A program made the translations under genes and the position numbers. A model generated the notes under the pieces. That model was given only the letters and a program-made list of their open reading frames with translations. It was not told the DNA's origin and searched no databases. A DNA stretch of 64,000 nt, taken from contig JALHDC010000004.1 of the NCBI GenBank assembly GCA_022840695.1, forward strand, positions 22,907 to 86,906, written 5' to 3'. How positions within the stretch are numbered: the stretch's first letter is position 1; every line of letters begins with the position of its first letter. This document shows, in pieces, positions 56,706 to 63,938 of the stretch. The stretch comes from a bacterium. Its GTDB lineage: Bacteria; Patescibacteriota; Dojkabacteria; SC72.

Positions 56706-58325
56706 ATGAGAACACCAGAGGAAAATAGGAAGTTAGCAGATATGTTGTTTCCTGAAGTGAAAGAATCTCCAGAAGATGTCTTTAAAAAATATCCCAAAAG
56801 GAATGTAGAAGGAATGGTTTTAAGATTTGCTCCTAGTCCTACAGGGTTTATCCATACAGGGAACATATATACAGGTTTTGTATCAACTAAATTAGCAAAA
56901 CAGAGCGGAGGAATATCCATACTTAGGATAGAGGATACGGATAAAAACAGGGAGATAGAGAATGGAGTTACCCAAATAGTACAAGCTTTAAAAGGATTCG
57001 GTATTGAATTTGATGAAGGAATGGAAGATGAAGATAATTGGAAGGGAGAGTATGGTCCATATATACAGAGTAAAAGGATTGATATATATCATGTATTTGC
57101 AAAAAATTTGGTATCTAAAGGTTATGCATATCCATGTTTCCTAACAGAGGAAGAATTAGAAGAGATCAGGCATAAGCAGGAGGAGTTGAAAGAAAGAACA
57201 GGATGCTATGGTAAGTGGGCGAAATACAGAGATGCATCAACGGAAGAAATAGAGGATCTATTAAATAAAGGAGGGAAATTCGTCATTAGATTATATTCCA
57301 CAGGAGATATAGAGGAGAGTTTTAATATGAAAGATCTTGTTAAAGGATCTGTGACTTTAAGAGAGAATGATATGGATGCAGTTTTACTAAAATCTGATGG
57401 GTATCCAACATATCATTTTGCTCATCCAATAGATGATACTTTAATGGGAATAACTCATATTACCAGAACTGATGAATGGTTTTCCTCTGTTTCTTTACAT
57501 GTAGAACTATTTGAAAAGCTTGGTTTTAAACAAATACCGTATGCACATCTTTCTCCATTAATGAAACTAGATAATGGGAAGAAGAGAAAACTAAGTAAAA
57601 GGAAAGATCCAGAATTTGCAGTTTCTTTCTACTTGGAAAATGGTTATCCTAAGAAAGCACTTTTAGAATATCTTTTAAATATTGCTAATTCAAACTTCTA
57701 TGATTGGAGAATACAAAATCCTCAAAAAGATATAGAAGAGTTTGAGTTAAAAATTGAAAAATTTAATAAAGCGGGTGCATTATTCGATGTTATTAAATTA
57801 GAGGATATATGTAAGAACTATATAGCGACACTCGCAGCACAAGAGGTATATGAAATGTCATTAGAATGGGCAAGAGAGTATGATGAAGAATTAGCAAAGT
57901 TATTAGAGGAAAACAAAGATTATTGTATTAAGATCTTTAATATTGAAAGAACTGGTGAAAAAATTAGGAAAGATATTGCCAAATTTGGAGATATTAGAGA
58001 TCAGTTAGTAATATTTTTTGATGAATTATTGAATAATGTTGATATAGAAGACATTGAAGATAGGGTGGGGAAAGCAAAGCAAAAAAATATTTTGAATGAA
58101 TATTTAAAAGTCTTTAATATCTCCGATACTCAAGAAATTTGGTTTGAGAAAATTAGAAATCTAGCATCTGAGTTAGGATTTGAGAAAGTGGGTGATGTTG
58201 CTATGGTATTAAGAGTCGCAATAACACATAGAACAAGAACGCCAGATCTATACCAGGTTATGCAAGTATTAGGAGAGCAAAAGGTTCGAGAAAGAATACA
58301 AAAGTATGTTGATATGATGATATAA
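56706..58325 (+). CDS. gltX: glutamyl-tRNA synthetase (probably non-discriminating)
   Basis: 'RFAPSPTGFIHTGN' (HIGH region), 'KLSKRKD' (KMSKS). Confidence 0.8.
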   Translation: MRTPEENRKLADMLFPEVKESPEDVFKKYPKRNVEGMVLRFAPSPTGFIHTGNIYTGFVSTKLAKQSGGISILRIEDTDKNREIENGVTQIVQALKGFGIEFDEGMEDEDNWKGEYGPYIQSKRIDIYHVFAKNLVSKGYAYPCFLTEEELEEIRHKQEELKERTGCYGKWAKYRDASTEEIEDLLNKGGKFVIRLYSTGDIEESFNMKDLVKGSVTLRENDMDAVLLKSDGYPTYHFAHPIDDTLMGITHITRTDEWFSSVSLHVELFEKLGFKQIPYAHLSPLMKLDNGKKRKLSKRKDPEFAVSFYLENGYPKKALLEYLLNIANSNFYDWRIQNPQKDIEEFELKIEKFNKAGALFDVIKLEDICKNYIATLAAQEVYEMSLEWAREYDEELAKLLEENKDYCIKIFNIERTGEKIRKDIAKFGDIRDQLVIFFDELLNNVDIEDIEDRVGKAKQKNILNEYLKVFNISDTQEIWFEKIRNLASELGFEKVGDVAMVLRVAITHRTRTPDLYQVMQVLGEQKVRERIQKYVDMMI

Positions 58326-58337
58326 TATCTCCATTAA

Positions 58338-58408
58338 TGCCGGATCGTCTAATGGTAGGACGACGGTCTCTGAAACCGTTAATTCTAGTTCGAATCTAGG
58401 TCCGGCAA
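58338..58408 (+). tRNA. tRNA-Gln (anticodon CTG) with a U1-A72 first pair
   Basis: Acceptor TGCCGGA/TCCGGCA, 3-bp D-stem, anticodon loop CTCTGAA, T-arm TCTAG-TTCGAAT-CTAGG. 71 nt, no CCA. Confidence 0.7.
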
Positions 58409-58775: not shown

Positions 58776-60550
58776 TTATATTTTATCTATATCTAATTTT
58801 ACCGTATATAAGCCTTTTTTCCAAATCTCCTTCCTGGTAATATCTATTCCCATTCCATTGAATATTTCATATGGTGATTTACTACTTCCAGAACTTAAAA
58901 ATTCTTTTACAAATTTAATATTTTCTATATCCTCTTTAACCATGCTTTGTAATGCTTTTGATATTAATAATCCGCTAGCATATGAATATACATAAAAAAA
59001 TTTTCTAAAATGACCAATATATATCCAACCATTTCTCATGCCTTCATCTTCATCTACATGCTCTCCTAGATATGCCTTCATATGTTTGCAAAAAAGATCA
59101 GATATATACTCCTTGCTAAGATATCCCTGTTTTCTAAATTCTGAATGTAATTCTTTTTCGAAGTTGTAAAATGCTACCTGCCTAAAGATAGAAGATACAT
59201 CCGAATTTATTTTCTCTGCTAATATAGCAAATTTAAGATCATCATTAGCTGTCTTTAATATCTCTTCCAGTACAAAATCCTCAAAAAATGTACTAGCTAT
59301 CTCTGCTAATGAAGTTGGATAGTGGCTGTTTAAAGAATTCTGCCTATGAGAAAATTCCGAGTGTATAGCATGCCCACTCTCATGCGCAATGGTTAGTACA
59401 TCATTTAGCTTCTCATTGAAGTTTAATAGTATATATGTAGGGAGATTCTTCCCAATGGTTATACAGAACCCTCCTCCTGTTTTACCTTGCTTTGCAAATG
59501 CATCGTACTGTCCATTTTTTAGAAAATTCTTAACAACATTTCCAAATTGAGTATCGATATCTTTAAAAGTATTTTGAACTAATTTAATTCCATCCTCAAA
59601 GGAGTATTGCATATCGACATTACCTAGTGGGACATTTCTTTCATGATATCCAAGTGTTTTCTGATTTAACAGTTTTGCCTTCTTTCTGTAATACTCTCTT
59701 GATATATGGAAGTTCTTTGTAACTGTATCCACTAAAGCATCAACAACAGTACTATCAATATCATCTGCTATATGTCTTGTTAAATCTGGTCTAGGTATTC
59801 CTCTATACTCATCAGATATCTTCTTATTTTCTAGAACTGAATTAATTTCAAACTCCGCTATCTCTGCATATCTACCATTTATTTTGTTAAACTCATTCGC
59901 TGCAATATCTCTAACCTCTTTGTTTTTAGCATTAAGATACTTTTGTATATCGTTGTAGGTTATTTCAATATTTTTCCCATCTTCATCTTTAATATTTAGT
60001 TTTTGCTTGTCAGTCAATTCTGAAATCATGTCTACCCAATTGGAATGGGATGTTTTGCTTGTTAGATTAAATATTTTTTCTTCTTTATCTGTGAGTAGAT
60101 ACTCTGAACCTCTGAAAAGAGATTCAAGGAAGTGTTTGTATGGTTCTAATTCCTTTGCCTTTAGAAATATTTTCTGTTGCTTTTTACCCACCTTTGAAAT
60201 ATTTAATTCAAAAAACTGTATATCATTACCAAGCTTTGTAGAAATATTGTCTAGTTTATTTAATTCTCCTTTTATTTTTGTATTTGTTTGGTCAAGGTTA
60301 TTAAGGAGGAGGAAGTAATAGATTGGTTTATTGCAAAGTCCAGTAGTTGCATACAGTTTCTCATATTCATCTAAGGCCTCTCTTAGTGCTGTCGGGTTTT
60401 GAGTGCTGTCGGGTTTTGAAGATACTCTTTATTGTTTCTCCACTTTTTTACAAAAGCCAAAACATTTTTTTTAGATTCCTCTATATCCTTTTTGATCTGT
60501 GGATCTTTTGTAGATGAATATAGGAGTTTTAGATTCCATTTTGTTTGCAT
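58776..60550 (-). pseudogene. pepF: oligoendopeptidase F (M3 family) disrupted by a 17-bp tandem duplication (frameshift). The N-terminal 46 codons (from the ATG at 60550) are out of frame with the 471-aa ORF 58776..60191.
   Basis: HExxH 'HESGHAIH' in the 471-aa ORF. Manual translation from the ATG at 60550 gives 'MQTKWNLKLLYSSTKDPQIK...NPTAL' then hits a stop inside the second repeat copy. Deleting one 17-mer joins the frames into a ~586-aa PepF. Confidence 0.7.
60385..60418. repeat. perfect 17-bp x2 tandem duplication AGTGCTGTCGGGTTTTG
   Basis: Verified base by base. Confidence 0.9.
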
Positions 60551-60640
60551 TTTTAATTATATCGTTAATATGTTGATATATCTAGATTTTTTAACTATTT
60601 TTTTGTAAAATGTCCTGTATCTAGTTCCTCCTAGATAGGG

Positions 60641-60718
60641 GAAGCCTTTCCTTAGGCGGCAGGGCTTCCCCAGAGGAAGAAACAAAATATATCTAATGAT
60701 ATTTGTTTCTTCCTCCCT
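60641..60718 (+). other. two adjacent perfect GC-rich hairpins (GGGGAAGCC..GGCTTCCCC and AGGAAGAAACAAA..TTTGTTTCTTCCT) in the pepF/ileS divergent intergenic region
   Basis: 9-bp and 13-bp perfect inverted repeats with ~16-nt loops. Confidence 0.5.
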
Positions 60719-60724
60719 CAATTT

Positions 60725-60945
60725 TCTTTGTGATATAATTACTTAACACTTAGACCCAGATATCACTGGCGAGTGGTGGAAAGAAAGTCATATGACGAGT
60801 AGAATCCAACGATTAGTAATCGAAATATTACCAAACCATATTAAGTGGTTAAGAACAAAATAGGGTGGTACCGCGTACTAATGTTCGCCCCTTTGTTAAG
60901 ATTAATATATACTGTATATTAGTTTTAACAGAGGGGTTTTTGTTT
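60725..60945 (+). promoter_or_regulatory. T-box riboswitch leader of ileS: T-box AGGGTGGTACCGCG (60862-60875), antiterminator A1/A2 helices, terminator CCCCTTTGTTAA/TTAACAGAGGGG + TTTTTGTTT
   Basis: Exact 14-nt T-box core. Bulge UGGUACC. 3' CGC-CCCT pairs with AGGG/GCG. Competing intrinsic terminator 60888..60945. Candidate Ile specifier codons AUC/AUU at ~60806-60816. Confidence 0.85.
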
Positions 60946-60968
60946 AATTAATATATGAAAGAAAAGAT

Positions 60969-63938
60969 ATGGGTAAATCTAAAATACCAGAAGTAAATCC
61001 TAGGCCAAATTTTAGTGGTATGGAAGATGGATTAATTGAATTTTGGAAGGAGAAAGATATTTTTAAAAAGAGTATTGAGAGTAGATCTACAGAAAGAAGA
61101 TTCTCCTTCGTAGATGGGCCTCCCTTTGTTACAGGTACTCCACACTATGCATCACTTCTTGTCTCAATACCTAAGGATATAATCCCAAGATATTGGACTA
61201 TGAAGGGATATAGGGTTAGGAGAGTTTGGGGTTGGGATTGTCATGGATTGCCTATTGAGGAAAGAGTGAGCAAAAATTTGAATGTAAAGGACAGGAGGGA
61301 TATAGAGGAGAGGATTGGGGTGGATGAGTATGTTGGTCAATGTAGAAATTATGTTGAGAAGGGTATTACAGATTGGAGATGGTATATCGAGAAAATAGGA
61401 AGATGGGTAGATTTGGATAATGCATATCGTACCATGGACCCAGAATTTAATGAGTCTGTAATTTGGGCATTTAAACAGATTTGGGATAAAGGGTATATAT
61501 ACAAAGGGAAGAGAGTCTCTTTGTATTCTACTGATGCATCTACACCAGTTTCTAATTTTGAAGTGACTATGGATGATACATATGAGGATGTTGAGGATAT
61601 TGCAATATTTGTTAAGTTTCAGTTAAAGAGTGATAGGTTTGATGAGTATACTAACGGGGAACCTGTTAAATTAGTAGCATGGACAACTACTGCATGGACC
61701 ATACCTGCTAATTTTGCTCTTGCTGTTAACAAAGACTTTGAATATTCAATTGTTAAATACAAAAATGAATATTTAGTGGTAGCTACAGATAGGTTGGAAT
61801 ATACATTTGGGGATGAAGAGTATGAAGTGGTAAAGAGTGTTATGGGGACAGAATTTGAAGAATTAGAATATGAACCAGCATACGATTTCTATGTAAATAC
61901 TGGAACTAAAAAGGATTGGCACGTATATCTTTCTGAGGATGTAACATCTGATGAAGGTACAGGAATACTGCATATAGCCCCTGGCTTTGGAGAAGTAGAT
62001 TTCAATATAGGTCAGAAGTTGGGTTTAAGTACTATAGTTCATATTGATGAAGCAGGAAATATGCTTGATGGAGATTGGAAAGGTATGTATATCAGAGATG
62101 CATCTCCAGTTATAACAGAAGATCTTGAAAAGAGTGCAAAGCTACTTAGATCTGAGAAGTATGTACACAGACTTCCTTTCTACAGAGGCTCTAATCCTCT
62201 CATATATATGACTCAAGATTCATATTTTATCGATATTCAGAAGATTAAGCCAAAGATGTTAGAGTTGCAAAAGAAGATCAACTGGGTACCAAGTACTTTC
62301 AAAAAGAGATTTGAATATGTTTTAGAAACATCTCCTGATTGGGCAATATCCAGAAATAGATATTGGGCAACAATAATGCCGGTTTGGGAGAGTGAAGATG
62401 GTGAGCAGTTAGTTGTTGGTGGAATAGAGGAGATGATGAAGTATACAGATCAAATTGAAAAAGTTGAAATTGAAAACGGTAAGTTTGAATACAGAGTGAA
62501 TGGCAAAAAGATGACTCTACATAGAGATGTATGTGATCAGATAGTTCTAAAGAAAGATGGAAAGGAATTTAGAAGAATTCCTGAGGTATTAGATTGTTGG
62601 ATGGATTCAGGAAGTGTTCCTTTTGCGGAACATCACTATCCTTTTGAAAATAAAGAGGCTTTTGAAGAGGCATTTCCTGCTGATTTCATAGTTGAATATA
62701 CAGGGCAGATAAGGGCATGGTTTAATGTTTTGTTTAGAATGTCTATCCTTCTCTTTGATGATATCCCATATAAAAATGTCGTTTGTACTGGGGTTATGTT
62801 TGGTAATGATGGAAGAAAGATGAGTAAATCATATCAAAACTACTCTGATCCTAAAGAAACACTTGAAGCTAAGGGAGGAGAAGCATTAAGGCTCTACATA
62901 ATGTCTACTCCAATCATGGCAGGAGGAGACATCTCTTGGTCAGATGAGCTATTGGATGAACAGATTAAGGATGTTTTAATTCCTCTTTGGAATACATATA
63001 GATACTTATCTTTATATGCAAATATACATTCATGGTCTCCTGAAAGTACAGAGTATACATCTAAGAATAATTTGGATAAATGGATAGAATCATACATGAA
63101 GAGTGTGACAATAGAGTACTCTAAAGCATTGGAAAGCTACAATATACCTGTTTCTGTTAAATTGATACAGCCATGTATAGATAATATCTCTCAGTGGTGG
63201 ATTCGAAGATCTAGGGATAGATTTGCAAATGGAGATCATGATGCTCTTCAAACATTGTATGCCACTATGGTTCTTTTCTCTAAGACATTTGCTCCTCAAA
63301 TGCCTTTCTTAACTGAAGAAATATACCAAAATCTTGTTGTAAAGGCAGGAATAAAGGATAGTGAAGAATCAGTTCACTTAGAAAAATATCCAGAATTTGA
63401 AGAAAAAGATATCAATAGAGAATTGTTAGAAAAAATGTCTCTCGCAAGACAGATTTGTTCAAATGGTCTTCAAGCTAGGGAAATATCAAAGATTAGTTTA
63501 AGACAACCTCTTTCCAAAGCATATATAGCGATGGATGATGAATATATTATGAGTGTTGTAAAAGAGGAATTAAATTTAAAAGAAGTACTGTTTTCTAAGG
63601 AAGTAAATGAAGAAGATGGACTGATAACTGTAGGGGAGAATGAATTGACTGTATCCTTGGATACTAATATGACAGAGGAATTAAAAAATGAAGGTACTAT
63701 AAATGATTTCCTTAGGAAGTATAGAGATCTAAGAAAAAAGAAAGGTCTAAGAATGGATGATAAGGTTTCAGTTACTTTCTCATTCGAAGGTGGAGATGTT
63801 AAGGATGTACTTAGTGAGTATGTTTTAGGCAATATGGATGTATTACAAGCTAAGGATGTAAAAATATCCGAAAAGATCCAAGAGGGTATAGGTGGGTTTT
63901 CTATTGCAAATACTAAAGTTTTGGTACTTTTTGAGTAA
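60969..63938 (+). CDS. ileS: isoleucyl-tRNA synthetase, eukaryote-like type 2
   Basis: 'GPPFVTGTPHYASLL' (type-2 IleRS HIGH-region variant), 'DWAISRNRYWATIMP', 'KMSKS' (GRKMSKSYQNY). 989 aa. Ile-type T-box upstream. Confidence 0.8.
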   Translation: MGKSKIPEVNPRPNFSGMEDGLIEFWKEKDIFKKSIESRSTERRFSFVDGPPFVTGTPHYASLLVSIPKDIIPRYWTMKGYRVRRVWGWDCHGLPIEERVSKNLNVKDRRDIEERIGVDEYVGQCRNYVEKGITDWRWYIEKIGRWVDLDNAYRTMDPEFNESVIWAFKQIWDKGYIYKGKRVSLYSTDASTPVSNFEVTMDDTYEDVEDIAIFVKFQLKSDRFDEYTNGEPVKLVAWTTTAWTIPANFALAVNKDFEYSIVKYKNEYLVVATDRLEYTFGDEEYEVVKSVMGTEFEELEYEPAYDFYVNTGTKKDWHVYLSEDVTSDEGTGILHIAPGFGEVDFNIGQKLGLSTIVHIDEAGNMLDGDWKGMYIRDASPVITEDLEKSAKLLRSEKYVHRLPFYRGSNPLIYMTQDSYFIDIQKIKPKMLELQKKINWVPSTFKKRFEYVLETSPDWAISRNRYWATIMPVWESEDGEQLVVGGIEEMMKYTDQIEKVEIENGKFEYRVNGKKMTLHRDVCDQIVLKKDGKEFRRIPEVLDCWMDSGSVPFAEHHYPFENKEAFEEAFPADFIVEYTGQIRAWFNVLFRMSILLFDDIPYKNVVCTGVMFGNDGRKMSKSYQNYSDPKETLEAKGGEALRLYIMSTPIMAGGDISWSDELLDEQIKDVLIPLWNTYRYLSLYANIHSWSPESTEYTSKNNLDKWIESYMKSVTIEYSKALESYNIPVSVKLIQPCIDNISQWWIRRSRDRFANGDHDALQTLYATMVLFSKTFAPQMPFLTEEIYQNLVVKAGIKDSEESVHLEKYPEFEEKDINRELLEKMSLARQICSNGLQAREISKISLRQPLSKAYIAMDDEYIMSVVKEELNLKEVLFSKEVNEEDGLITVGENELTVSLDTNMTEELKNEGTINDFLRKYRDLRKKKGLRMDDKVSVTFSFEGGDVKDVLSEYVLGNMDVLQAKDVKISEKIQEGIGGFSIANTKVLVLFE

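Follow-up and report, generated by a model that had tools for sequence, protein, structure and literature searches.

A predicted tRNA-Ile-responsive T-box leader with an ultrashort Stem I precedes a type-2 isoleucyl-tRNA synthetase gene in a Dojkabacteria genome

Introduction

Which kind of RNA switch precedes the isoleucyl-tRNA synthetase (IleRS) gene of a Dojkabacteria genome, and at which step could it control that gene? The stretch analyzed here, 64,000 nt of contig JALHDC010000004.1 (referred to as the window), contains ileS close to its 3' end, with a leader RNA directly in front of it. The original prediction described this leader as a canonical T-box riboswitch of a eukaryote-like (type-2) IleRS. 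Our analysis supports a tRNA-Ile-specific T-box leader with an antiterminator/terminator switch, placed before a type-2 IleRS gene in a genome of the Candidate Phyla Radiation (CPR). The leader is a real, conserved, and structurally well-supported T-box, which nonetheless lacks the distal part of Stem I and fails the Rfam threshold. Thus, the label "canonical" had to be given up, as Stem I has no AG bulge, distal loop, or tRNA-elbow platform and presents the specifier in its apical loop. From the architecture we consider it probable that the leader is a tRNA-Ile-responsive "ultrashort Stem I" T-box that would control ileS, most likely by transcription attenuation.

Results

The leader combines an exact T-box sequence with an intrinsic terminator

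The anatomy of the leader (Table 1) was built from the sequence, the Rfam alignment, a minimum-free-energy fold, and leader alignments; the structural elements, their covariation, and the sharing of strands were computed directly, as were the placement of the terminator with respect to the start codon and the conservation of the leader in CPR lineages. The sequence features of the original prediction were all recovered. The predicted T-box core AGGGTGGTACCGCG is present without deviation at 60862-60875 and is the single match in the window even at two mismatches (0.06 expected from shuffles). It comprises the AGGGUGGNACCGCG core and the seven-nucleotide bulge UGGUACC, in which the UGGN element, correctly anticipated as UGGU (60866-60869), is able to pair with the 3' NCCA end of a tRNA. 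As bacterial tRNA-Ile carries A73, the variable U would pair with this base.

Antiterminator and terminator compete for the same strand. The 5' strand of the terminator reuses the 3' strand of the antiterminator, and the bases 60888-60892 are common to both folds, which renders the two structures mutually exclusive, as had been proposed. The hand-drawn antiterminator amounts to -7.0 kcal/mol versus -29.7 kcal/mol for the terminator; a weak antiterminator that needs the tRNA to hold is the standard T-box arrangement. The U-run ends 31 nt 5' of the start codon, and the hairpin leaves out the ribosome-binding region, a purine-rich stretch before the ATG.

On an independent MAFFT alignment of 21 leaders, the terminator helix is paired in 94% of cells and displays 46 compensatory cells, compared with 5-16 in controls with slid partners. 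Of the 19 close leaders, 16 have a hairpin with U-run (-23.5 to -34.7 kcal/mol) that lies 26-34 nt 5' of the ATG, and the leader of L127, a relative described below, also ends in a terminator with U-run. In L010, L119, and L120, for which the rules of the strict finder are too tight, neither the strict nor the looser scan returned a valid terminator call, and the looser finder is weak or ambiguous for part of the Saccharimonadales. Our firm claim of a terminator is accordingly restricted to the clade of the window.

Two relatives, L011 (2396-2410) and L016 (2922-2935), carry a CGGU bulge instead of UGGU (GGACGGUAC), which would lose the pair with A76 of the tRNA; the remaining leader is kept in both.

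Table 1. Features of the ileS leader and its gene, in window coordinates.
Feature	Position	Strand	Evidence or detail
ileS leader RNA	RF00230 match 60742-60895	+	5' of ileS 60969-63938
Extended -10 element TGATATAAT	60731..60739	+	GATATAAT-like -10 in related leaders
Ultrashort Stem I	60747..60775	+	RF00230 alignment and compensatory changes
Stem I K-turn C-stem	CAC 60747-49 with GUG 60773-75	+	Covaries
Stem I K-turn bulge UUA	60750-52	+	
Stem I K-turn tandem G.A pairs	60753-54 with 60771-72	+	
Stem I 4-bp helix	CCAG 60756-59 with CUGG 60766-69	+	
Stem I apical loop AUAUCA, 6 nt	60760-65	+	Carries AUC
Specifier AUC (Ile, read by anticodon GAU) and conserved 3' purine A	60762..60765	+	Invariance
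Stem II	60777..60808	+	Basal helix UGGA 60777-80 with UCCA 60805-08
Stem II S-turn strands	AAGAAA 60781-86 and GAGUAGAA 60797-804	+	
Stem II distal hairpin	60787-96	+	
Stem IIA and IIA/B pseudoknot	60810..60832	+	IIA 60810-12 with 60820-22; loop 60816-19 with 60828-31
Stem III hairpin AACCA / UGGUU	60834..60850	+	Covariation
T-box sequence AGGGUGGUACCGCG	60862-75	+	Exact match
Antiterminator	60862..60892	+	A1, bulge, A2
Antiterminator helix A1	60862-65 with 60889-92	+	
Antiterminator bulge UGGUACC, 7 nt	60866-72	+	
Antiterminator helix A2	60873-75 with 60886-88	+	
Intrinsic terminator, 24-bp hairpin then U-run TTTTTGTTT	Hairpin 60887-60937; whole 60887..60945	+	Terminator scan and folding
ileS, 989-aa type-2 (eukaryote-like) IleRS	60969..63938	+	NCBIfam, Pfam, PDB ranking

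Covariation supports every helix

Relatives were collected by an IleRS-seeded scan of species-representative genomes, by protein search, and by contig look-ups. The scan returned CPR metagenome-assembled genomes (MAGs) labelled Dojkabacteria, Patescibacteria, or "Saccharibacteria" (best identity 85%), in agreement with the CPR-like host suspected from the sequence; in every relative examined, the gene 3' of the leader is ileS. In a MAFFT alignment of 14 distinct leaders, which was not fitted to any structure, the hand-drawn structure including the pseudoknot is 97% paired. The two sides change together in 24 of its 40 pairs, compared with 3-6 when the partners are slid, and none of 500 shuffles reached the observed covariation score or paired fraction.

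A covariance model built from this alignment (R1) and run over the window with filters off recovers only the ileS leader, at 149 bits; nothing else exceeds 9.9 bits, the score of the next-best match, and hence no second T-box was found in the 64 kb. In the close loci, R1 gives 19 strong matches 5' of ileS. The close set aligned with the covariance model (22 sequences) reaches 98.8% pairing and compensatory changes in 31 of 35 pairs, values to be read with the bias of such an alignment toward its own structure. Covariation in about 20 Dojkabacteria-like relatives and 28 distant CPR leaders (Saccharimonadales and others, see below) supports every helix.

The standard Rfam model sees this leader poorly. 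A scan with RF00230 had been suggested as a check, with a score below threshold counting against the T-box. With permissive filters on the 501-nt leader, RF00230 aligns 60742-60895 end to end and significantly (45.2 bits, E = 7.5e-9), and yet the score remains under the gathering score of 93, so that formally it falls on the refuting side; correspondingly, a gathering-threshold scan of the whole window reports tRNAs only and no RF00230. In the alignment, 74 consensus positions of the distal Stem I are reduced to 4 nt, and the low score thus stems from the missing distal Stem I rather than from a chance match. None of 16 CPR leaders passes the gathering threshold, in contrast to a canonical long-Stem-I ileS leader of Dehalococcoidales (L029, 112.5 bits). 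With scores at about half the Rfam threshold, such leaders are missed by annotation pipelines, and T-box surveys under-count non-Firmicute phyla.

An ultrashort Stem I presents AUC in its apical loop

Stem I consists of a kink-turn (K-turn) and a short helix, and both of its helices are 100% paired with compensatory changes in the MAFFT as well as the covariance-model alignments. The K-turn (GA motif) is recognizable by G11 and A12 opposite G29 and A30, which are largely conserved, and by the covarying C-stem. Among the specifier candidates put forward earlier, AUC at 60762-60764 lies in the apical loop. AUCA is invariant in the MAFFT alignment (A4), and 47 of 50 aligned rows keep AUC followed by A, with variable bases at the two loop positions 5' of it; the loop measures 6-7 nt in about 43 of these rows. 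The codon agrees with the downstream gene, which is always ileS. The distal elements of a long Stem I, namely the AG bulge, the distal loop, and the interdigitated T-loops that contact the tRNA elbow, are absent. L127, whose IleRS is 60% identical, keeps a small distal hairpin and has its specifier GUAUCA in the 3' strand of an internal loop; its Stem I is an "intermediate" form.

The promoter leaves no room for a longer stem. A -10 element of the GATATAAT type occurs at a fixed distance of 22-25 nt 5' of the specifier in 19 related leaders, which would place the transcription start at about 60745-60747, at the foot of Stem I and its K-turn, so that no 5' strand is available to lengthen Stem I. 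A generic promoter scan made no call for the element at 60731-60739 because the -35 region is poor.

Stem II, the IIA/B pseudoknot, and Stem III are retained

Downstream of Stem I follow a Stem II that contains an S-turn, the IIA/B pseudoknot, and Stem III, and every one of these helices covaries. In the MAFFT alignment, GAA and AGUAGA of the S-turn are invariant or nearly so, and both Stem II and Stem IIA are paired in 100% of cells, with compensatory changes in 6 of 7 and 2 of 3 pairs, respectively. The pseudoknot changes on both sides in 5 of 5 pairs and is paired in 81% of cells, although the alignment was not fitted to it. Stem III is 96% paired, with compensatory changes in 3/5 pairs in A4 and 5/5 in alignment A5. 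GUU-AAG-AAC (60848-60857), which the Rfam alignment assigns to Stem III, was dropped, as AACCA/UGGUU is what covaries.

This region is variable among relatives. In ten of them (L003, L005, L118, L119, L122, L002, L007, L008, L010, and L120), Stem III and the T-box sequence are separated by an additional conserved hairpin (AUUACA-GUAA-UGUAAU, GNRA-like loop; A4 columns 127-149). Four of its six pairs are compensatory in the L003-type relatives, and it is absent from the window's leader. L006, L009, and L125 apparently have no Stem III hairpin and a longer Stem II; MAFFT misaligns their Stem II/III region, and R1 scores lower there (85-91 bits).

The downstream gene encodes a type-2 IleRS

The open reading frame (ORF) at 60969-63938 encodes 989 amino acids (aa), includes DGPPFVTGTPHYASLL, and is confirmed as a type-2 IleRS, as first read from the sequence. 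It matches TIGR00392 (ileS) of NCBIfam with 764.6 bits and the Pfam domains tRNA-synt_1, Anticodon_1, and DUF5915. The last of these, located at residues 855-951 in the C-terminal region, is taken here to mark the C-terminal region of type-2 enzymes. In a phmmer search against the PDB, eukaryotic cytoplasmic IleRS, Thermus thermophilus IleRS, and Priestia megaterium IleRS2 rank at 513-599 bits and IleRS1 enzymes at 213-325 bits; the MupA and MupB models score 521 and 484 bits.

KMSKS is intact, while the class-I HIGH signature reads HYAS (61143-61154, residues 59-62) and departs from the HYGH of solved type-2 enzymes. The 120 closest homologs have HYGH (37), HYGS (34), HYGT (16), HYAS (11), HPGT (8), or HPAH (7), and 114 of 120 Saccharimonadales homologs have HHGT. 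Loss of the second histidine thus looks common in CPR IleRS2.

Related leaders are widespread and patchy in CPR bacteria

R1 matches directly 5' of ileS were found in 28 of 79 distant type-2 ileS loci from metagenomes (37-46% protein identity). These loci came from a metagenome scan seeded with very general peptides (WGWDCHG and EHHYPFE), which yields mostly distant IleRS2 genes. Their leaders share the mini Stem I with AUC-A and have variant T-box cores, e.g., GGAUGGUACCG or AAGGUGGUACCACG. Aligned with the covariance model, the 28 are 96.1% paired with 31 of 35 pairs compensatory, including antiterminator helix A1, which does not vary in the close set and is compensatory in 4 of 4 pairs here. 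As nearly all NCBI-named homologs of the IleRS of one such locus (L064) belong to Candidatus Saccharimonadales, the class occurs in at least two major CPR lineages.

In the distant set, an automatic terminator scan found clear strand-sharing terminators in L090, L092, L101, L113, and L043; several other calls are weak or missing, and CPR bacteria may thus differ in their expression platform.

A strict T-box pattern had returned "no leader" for L002, L007, L008, L011, L016, L120, and the distant metagenome loci; the covariance model overturned this verdict, the pattern having failed because it misses variant cores (UGGUAAC, GGAUGGUACC, GGACGGUAC). No leader was found at ileS of the complete Dojkabacteria genome behind L015, at the Daviesbacteria loci, and at many others, and the distribution is therefore patchy.

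Individual leaders deviate further. In that of L126 (1320-1500), everything from Stem I through Stem II and the IIA/B pseudoknot to Stem III is preserved (99 bits with R1), with T-box sequence, antiterminator, and terminator all missing. It resembles a riboswitch of which half has been deleted, and it should be constitutively "on". The low-GC distant leaders L099 (1200-1300), L097 (1150-1260), and L070 (1290-1380) contain short tandem repeats between pseudoknot and T-box sequence (units, e.g., AACTAGC or CTATAAGCTA), and further repeats, TTTTCAAT, lie between terminator and ileS.

Neighboring features in the window

Upstream of the leader, a perfect 14-nt-arm palindrome (GAGGAAGAAACAAA / TTTGTTTCTTCCTC, 15-nt spacer) spans 60673-60715 and ends 15 nt before the -10 element of ileS; a second, imperfect inverted repeat lies just 5' of it at 60638-60671. 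Neither is found in the corresponding region of L035 or L001. Located between divergent genes, these repeats could be an operator or a bidirectional terminator. The divergent gene on the minus strand (58776-60550), a Peptidase_M3 / oligoendopeptidase F gene, harbors a perfect 17-nt tandem duplication (AGTGCTGTCGGGTTTTG twice, 60385-60418) that breaks it into two ORFs (471 and 55 aa). The same sequence in two independent assemblies (L115 and L116) has no duplication and encodes an intact oligoendopeptidase F of 585 aa; the duplication represents either a frameshift at the strain level or an artefact of assembly. Further away, a GluRS-family gene (tRNA-synt_1c and Anticodon_2, 539 aa) occupies 56706-58408, with tRNA-Gln(CUG) 13 nt downstream and no T-box before it.

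Discussion

A model for attenuation without an elbow platform

The anatomy suggests how the leader might work, with tRNA binding, the site of transcription initiation, and actual termination and readthrough all inferred from it. Transcription would begin a few bases 5' of 60747, and the nascent RNA would fold into the K-turn mini Stem I showing AUC-A in its apical loop, followed by the S-turn Stem II and the IIA/B pseudoknot. In solved actinobacterial complexes, the decoding half of the leader binds the anticodon arm (summarized in PMC7583486 and PMC10651847). By analogy with these ileS T-box/tRNA complexes, mini Stem I, Stem II, and pseudoknot may jointly form an anticodon-binding groove that replaces the tRNA-elbow platform. 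The 3' ACCA of uncharged tRNA-Ile would then pair with the UGGU of the bulge and stabilize the antiterminator, allowing RNA polymerase to read into ileS. With the tRNA charged or absent, the 24-bp terminator would capture the CCCCU strand and transcription would stop at the U-run.

Several observations weigh against this model. Transcriptional T-boxes are held to need, in general, a long Stem I for fast tRNA capture (PMC7583486, section 6.2), and a short form coupled to a terminator is unexpected because the long stem is held to be kinetically necessary for them (PMC7583486). The Rfam score stays at 45.2 bits, below the family gathering score of 93. For some of the Saccharimonadales leaders, the automated scan gives a weak terminator or none. 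Finally, no tRNA-Ile gene that would confirm the GAU anticodon and A73 was found in the window or, by a tRNA scan of 50 loci, in the fetched loci.

Alternative readings

The main rival is a translational T-box, in which the long hairpin would sequester the ribosome-binding site as in the actinobacterial ultrashort class. It draws its appeal from precedent: the ultrashort ileS T-boxes described so far are all reported to be translational (10.1101/2023.02.28.530422; PMC7583486), and the Stem I architecture of the window's leader equals theirs. The hairpin, however, ends 31 nt before the ATG, excludes the purine-rich stretch, and runs directly into TTTTTGTTT, a geometry (26-34 nt before the ATG) that recurs in 16 of the 19 close leaders. 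Position and U-run thus disfavor translational control, which we regard as unlikely. Even less probable is a relic in decay, whose terminator or leader would act constitutively and no longer sense tRNA. Such decay could account for L126, where the decoding half has outlived T-box sequence, antiterminator, and terminator, for the CGGU bulges of L011 and L016, and for the absence of the leader from many related CPR genomes. It is at odds with compensatory changes in every helix, pseudoknot included, over IleRS identities from 91% to below 40%, and with the invariance of the functional single-stranded bases (AUCA, the S-turn, and UGGUACC), which together point to purifying selection on a working fold.

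A canonical T-box with a full-length Stem I, its AG-bulge and distal-loop motifs lying upstream, would explain the exact T-box sequence and the antiterminator/terminator pair. Four lines of evidence speak against it: the collapse of 74 Stem I positions to 4 nt in the Rfam alignment, the conserved -10 element 22-25 nt before the specifier, which leaves no room for a longer stem, the 6-nt apical loop that holds the specifier in about 40 leaders, and a gathering threshold that catches L029 (112.5 bits) and 0 of 16 CPR leaders. On the evidence of these alignments, this form appears already refuted, and we assign it next to no probability. Attenuation by an ultrashort-Stem-I T-box is therefore the reading we retain.

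Comparison with known T-boxes and implications

The closest known counterparts are the ultrashort (US) ileS T-boxes of Actinobacteria (Mycobacterium smegmatis, M. tuberculosis), treated by Sherwood, Grundy and Henkin in 2015 and summarized in PMC7583486 and 10.1101/2023.02.28.530422; published accounts present the class as translational, specific to ileS, and actinobacterial (10.1101/2023.02.28.530422; PMC7583486; PMC12990946). Like these, the window's leader has a Stem I made up of a K-turn and a short helix whose terminal loop contains the specifier, lacks the tRNA-elbow platform, and retains the S-turn Stem II and the IIA/B pseudoknot as well as Stem III and the T-box bulge. Specificity for tRNA-Ile (AUC) and the place 5' of a type-2 ileS are shared as well, and some US leaders have extra hairpins near Stem III. 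The expression platforms differ: US T-boxes sequester the Shine-Dalgarno sequence, while the window's leader has a long hairpin and U-run well 5' of the start codon. Thus, the leader conforms to the US class in its short Stem I, the place of the specifier, and the regulated gene, and departs from it in the expression platform. The hosts differ too (Actinobacteria versus CPR/Patescibacteria), and the likeness is drawn from published descriptions of the class.

With canonical transcriptional T-boxes (RF00230; Bacillus subtilis tyrS and glyQS; L029), the leader has in common the T-box sequence AGGGUGGNACCGCG, the 7-nt bulge, and mutually exclusive antiterminator and terminator, as well as the K-turn, a specifier followed by a purine, and Stems II, IIA/B, and III. 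In contrast, it lacks their AG bulge, distal loop, and interdigitated T-loop platform (45 versus 93 bits; L029 112.5). The intermediate Stem I found in the ileS T-box from Nocardia farcinica (PDB 6UFM; PMC7583486, PMC10651847) resembles that of L127 and differs from the window's leader, which has no distal hairpin.

A T-box combined with a type-2 IleRS, originally taken as uncommon, has precedents: T-boxes precede ileS2 of P. megaterium, and the sole IleRS of Actinobacteria is IleRS2 (10.1101/2022.02.09.479832). It is actinobacterial ileS that has the ultrashort T-boxes. The P. megaterium ileS2 T-boxes also share the transcriptional read-through logic (10.1101/2022.02.09.479832). They are Firmicute leaders of a second, stress-induced copy, whereas the CPR type-2 gene lies in conserved housekeeping synteny, as judged from reading the loci. 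What is unusual is that an ultrashort Stem I is joined to an intrinsic terminator and that this form has spread through CPR bacteria.

How such leaders could have been overlooked is suggested by the TBDB survey, which applied its translational ileS model to Actinobacteria only and an Rfam-type model elsewhere (10.1101/2020.06.17.157016), so that CPR leaders would be missed. In a 2024 perspective on Patescibacteria, riboswitches are named solely as synthetic tools, and full-text searches for T-box together with Candidate Phyla Radiation, Patescibacteria, or Saccharibacteria gave no result. The 2015 abstract of Sherwood reportedly calls "many", not all, atypical ileS leaders translational, and isolated terminator-bearing short forms may have been noted before.

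We give roughly even chances to the broader proposal that these leaders form a large unannotated T-box class across CPR bacteria (Dojkabacteria-like, Saccharimonadales, and others), which would attenuate type-2 ileS without an elbow platform. If so, the platform would not be a general requirement for co-transcriptional tRNA sensing, and the class would be among the first native cis-regulatory RNAs recognized in CPR bacteria. Next to nothing is said to be known about regulation in these ultrasmall auxotrophic epibionts (PMC11665869), which would then possess an RNA switch for isoleucine charging. The class may share ancestry with the ultrashort T-boxes of Actinobacteria or may have been exchanged along with the IleRS2 gene; in this respect it is relevant that Actinobacteria are the hosts of Saccharibacteria.

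According to a rule of thumb, a long Stem I belongs to co-transcriptional leaders and is dispensable only in translational ones (PMC7583486); the covarying CPR family would be a natural counter-example. A T-box before a type-2 ileS is not new in itself; it is the terminator platform and the CPR host that set this leader apart from the known US class.

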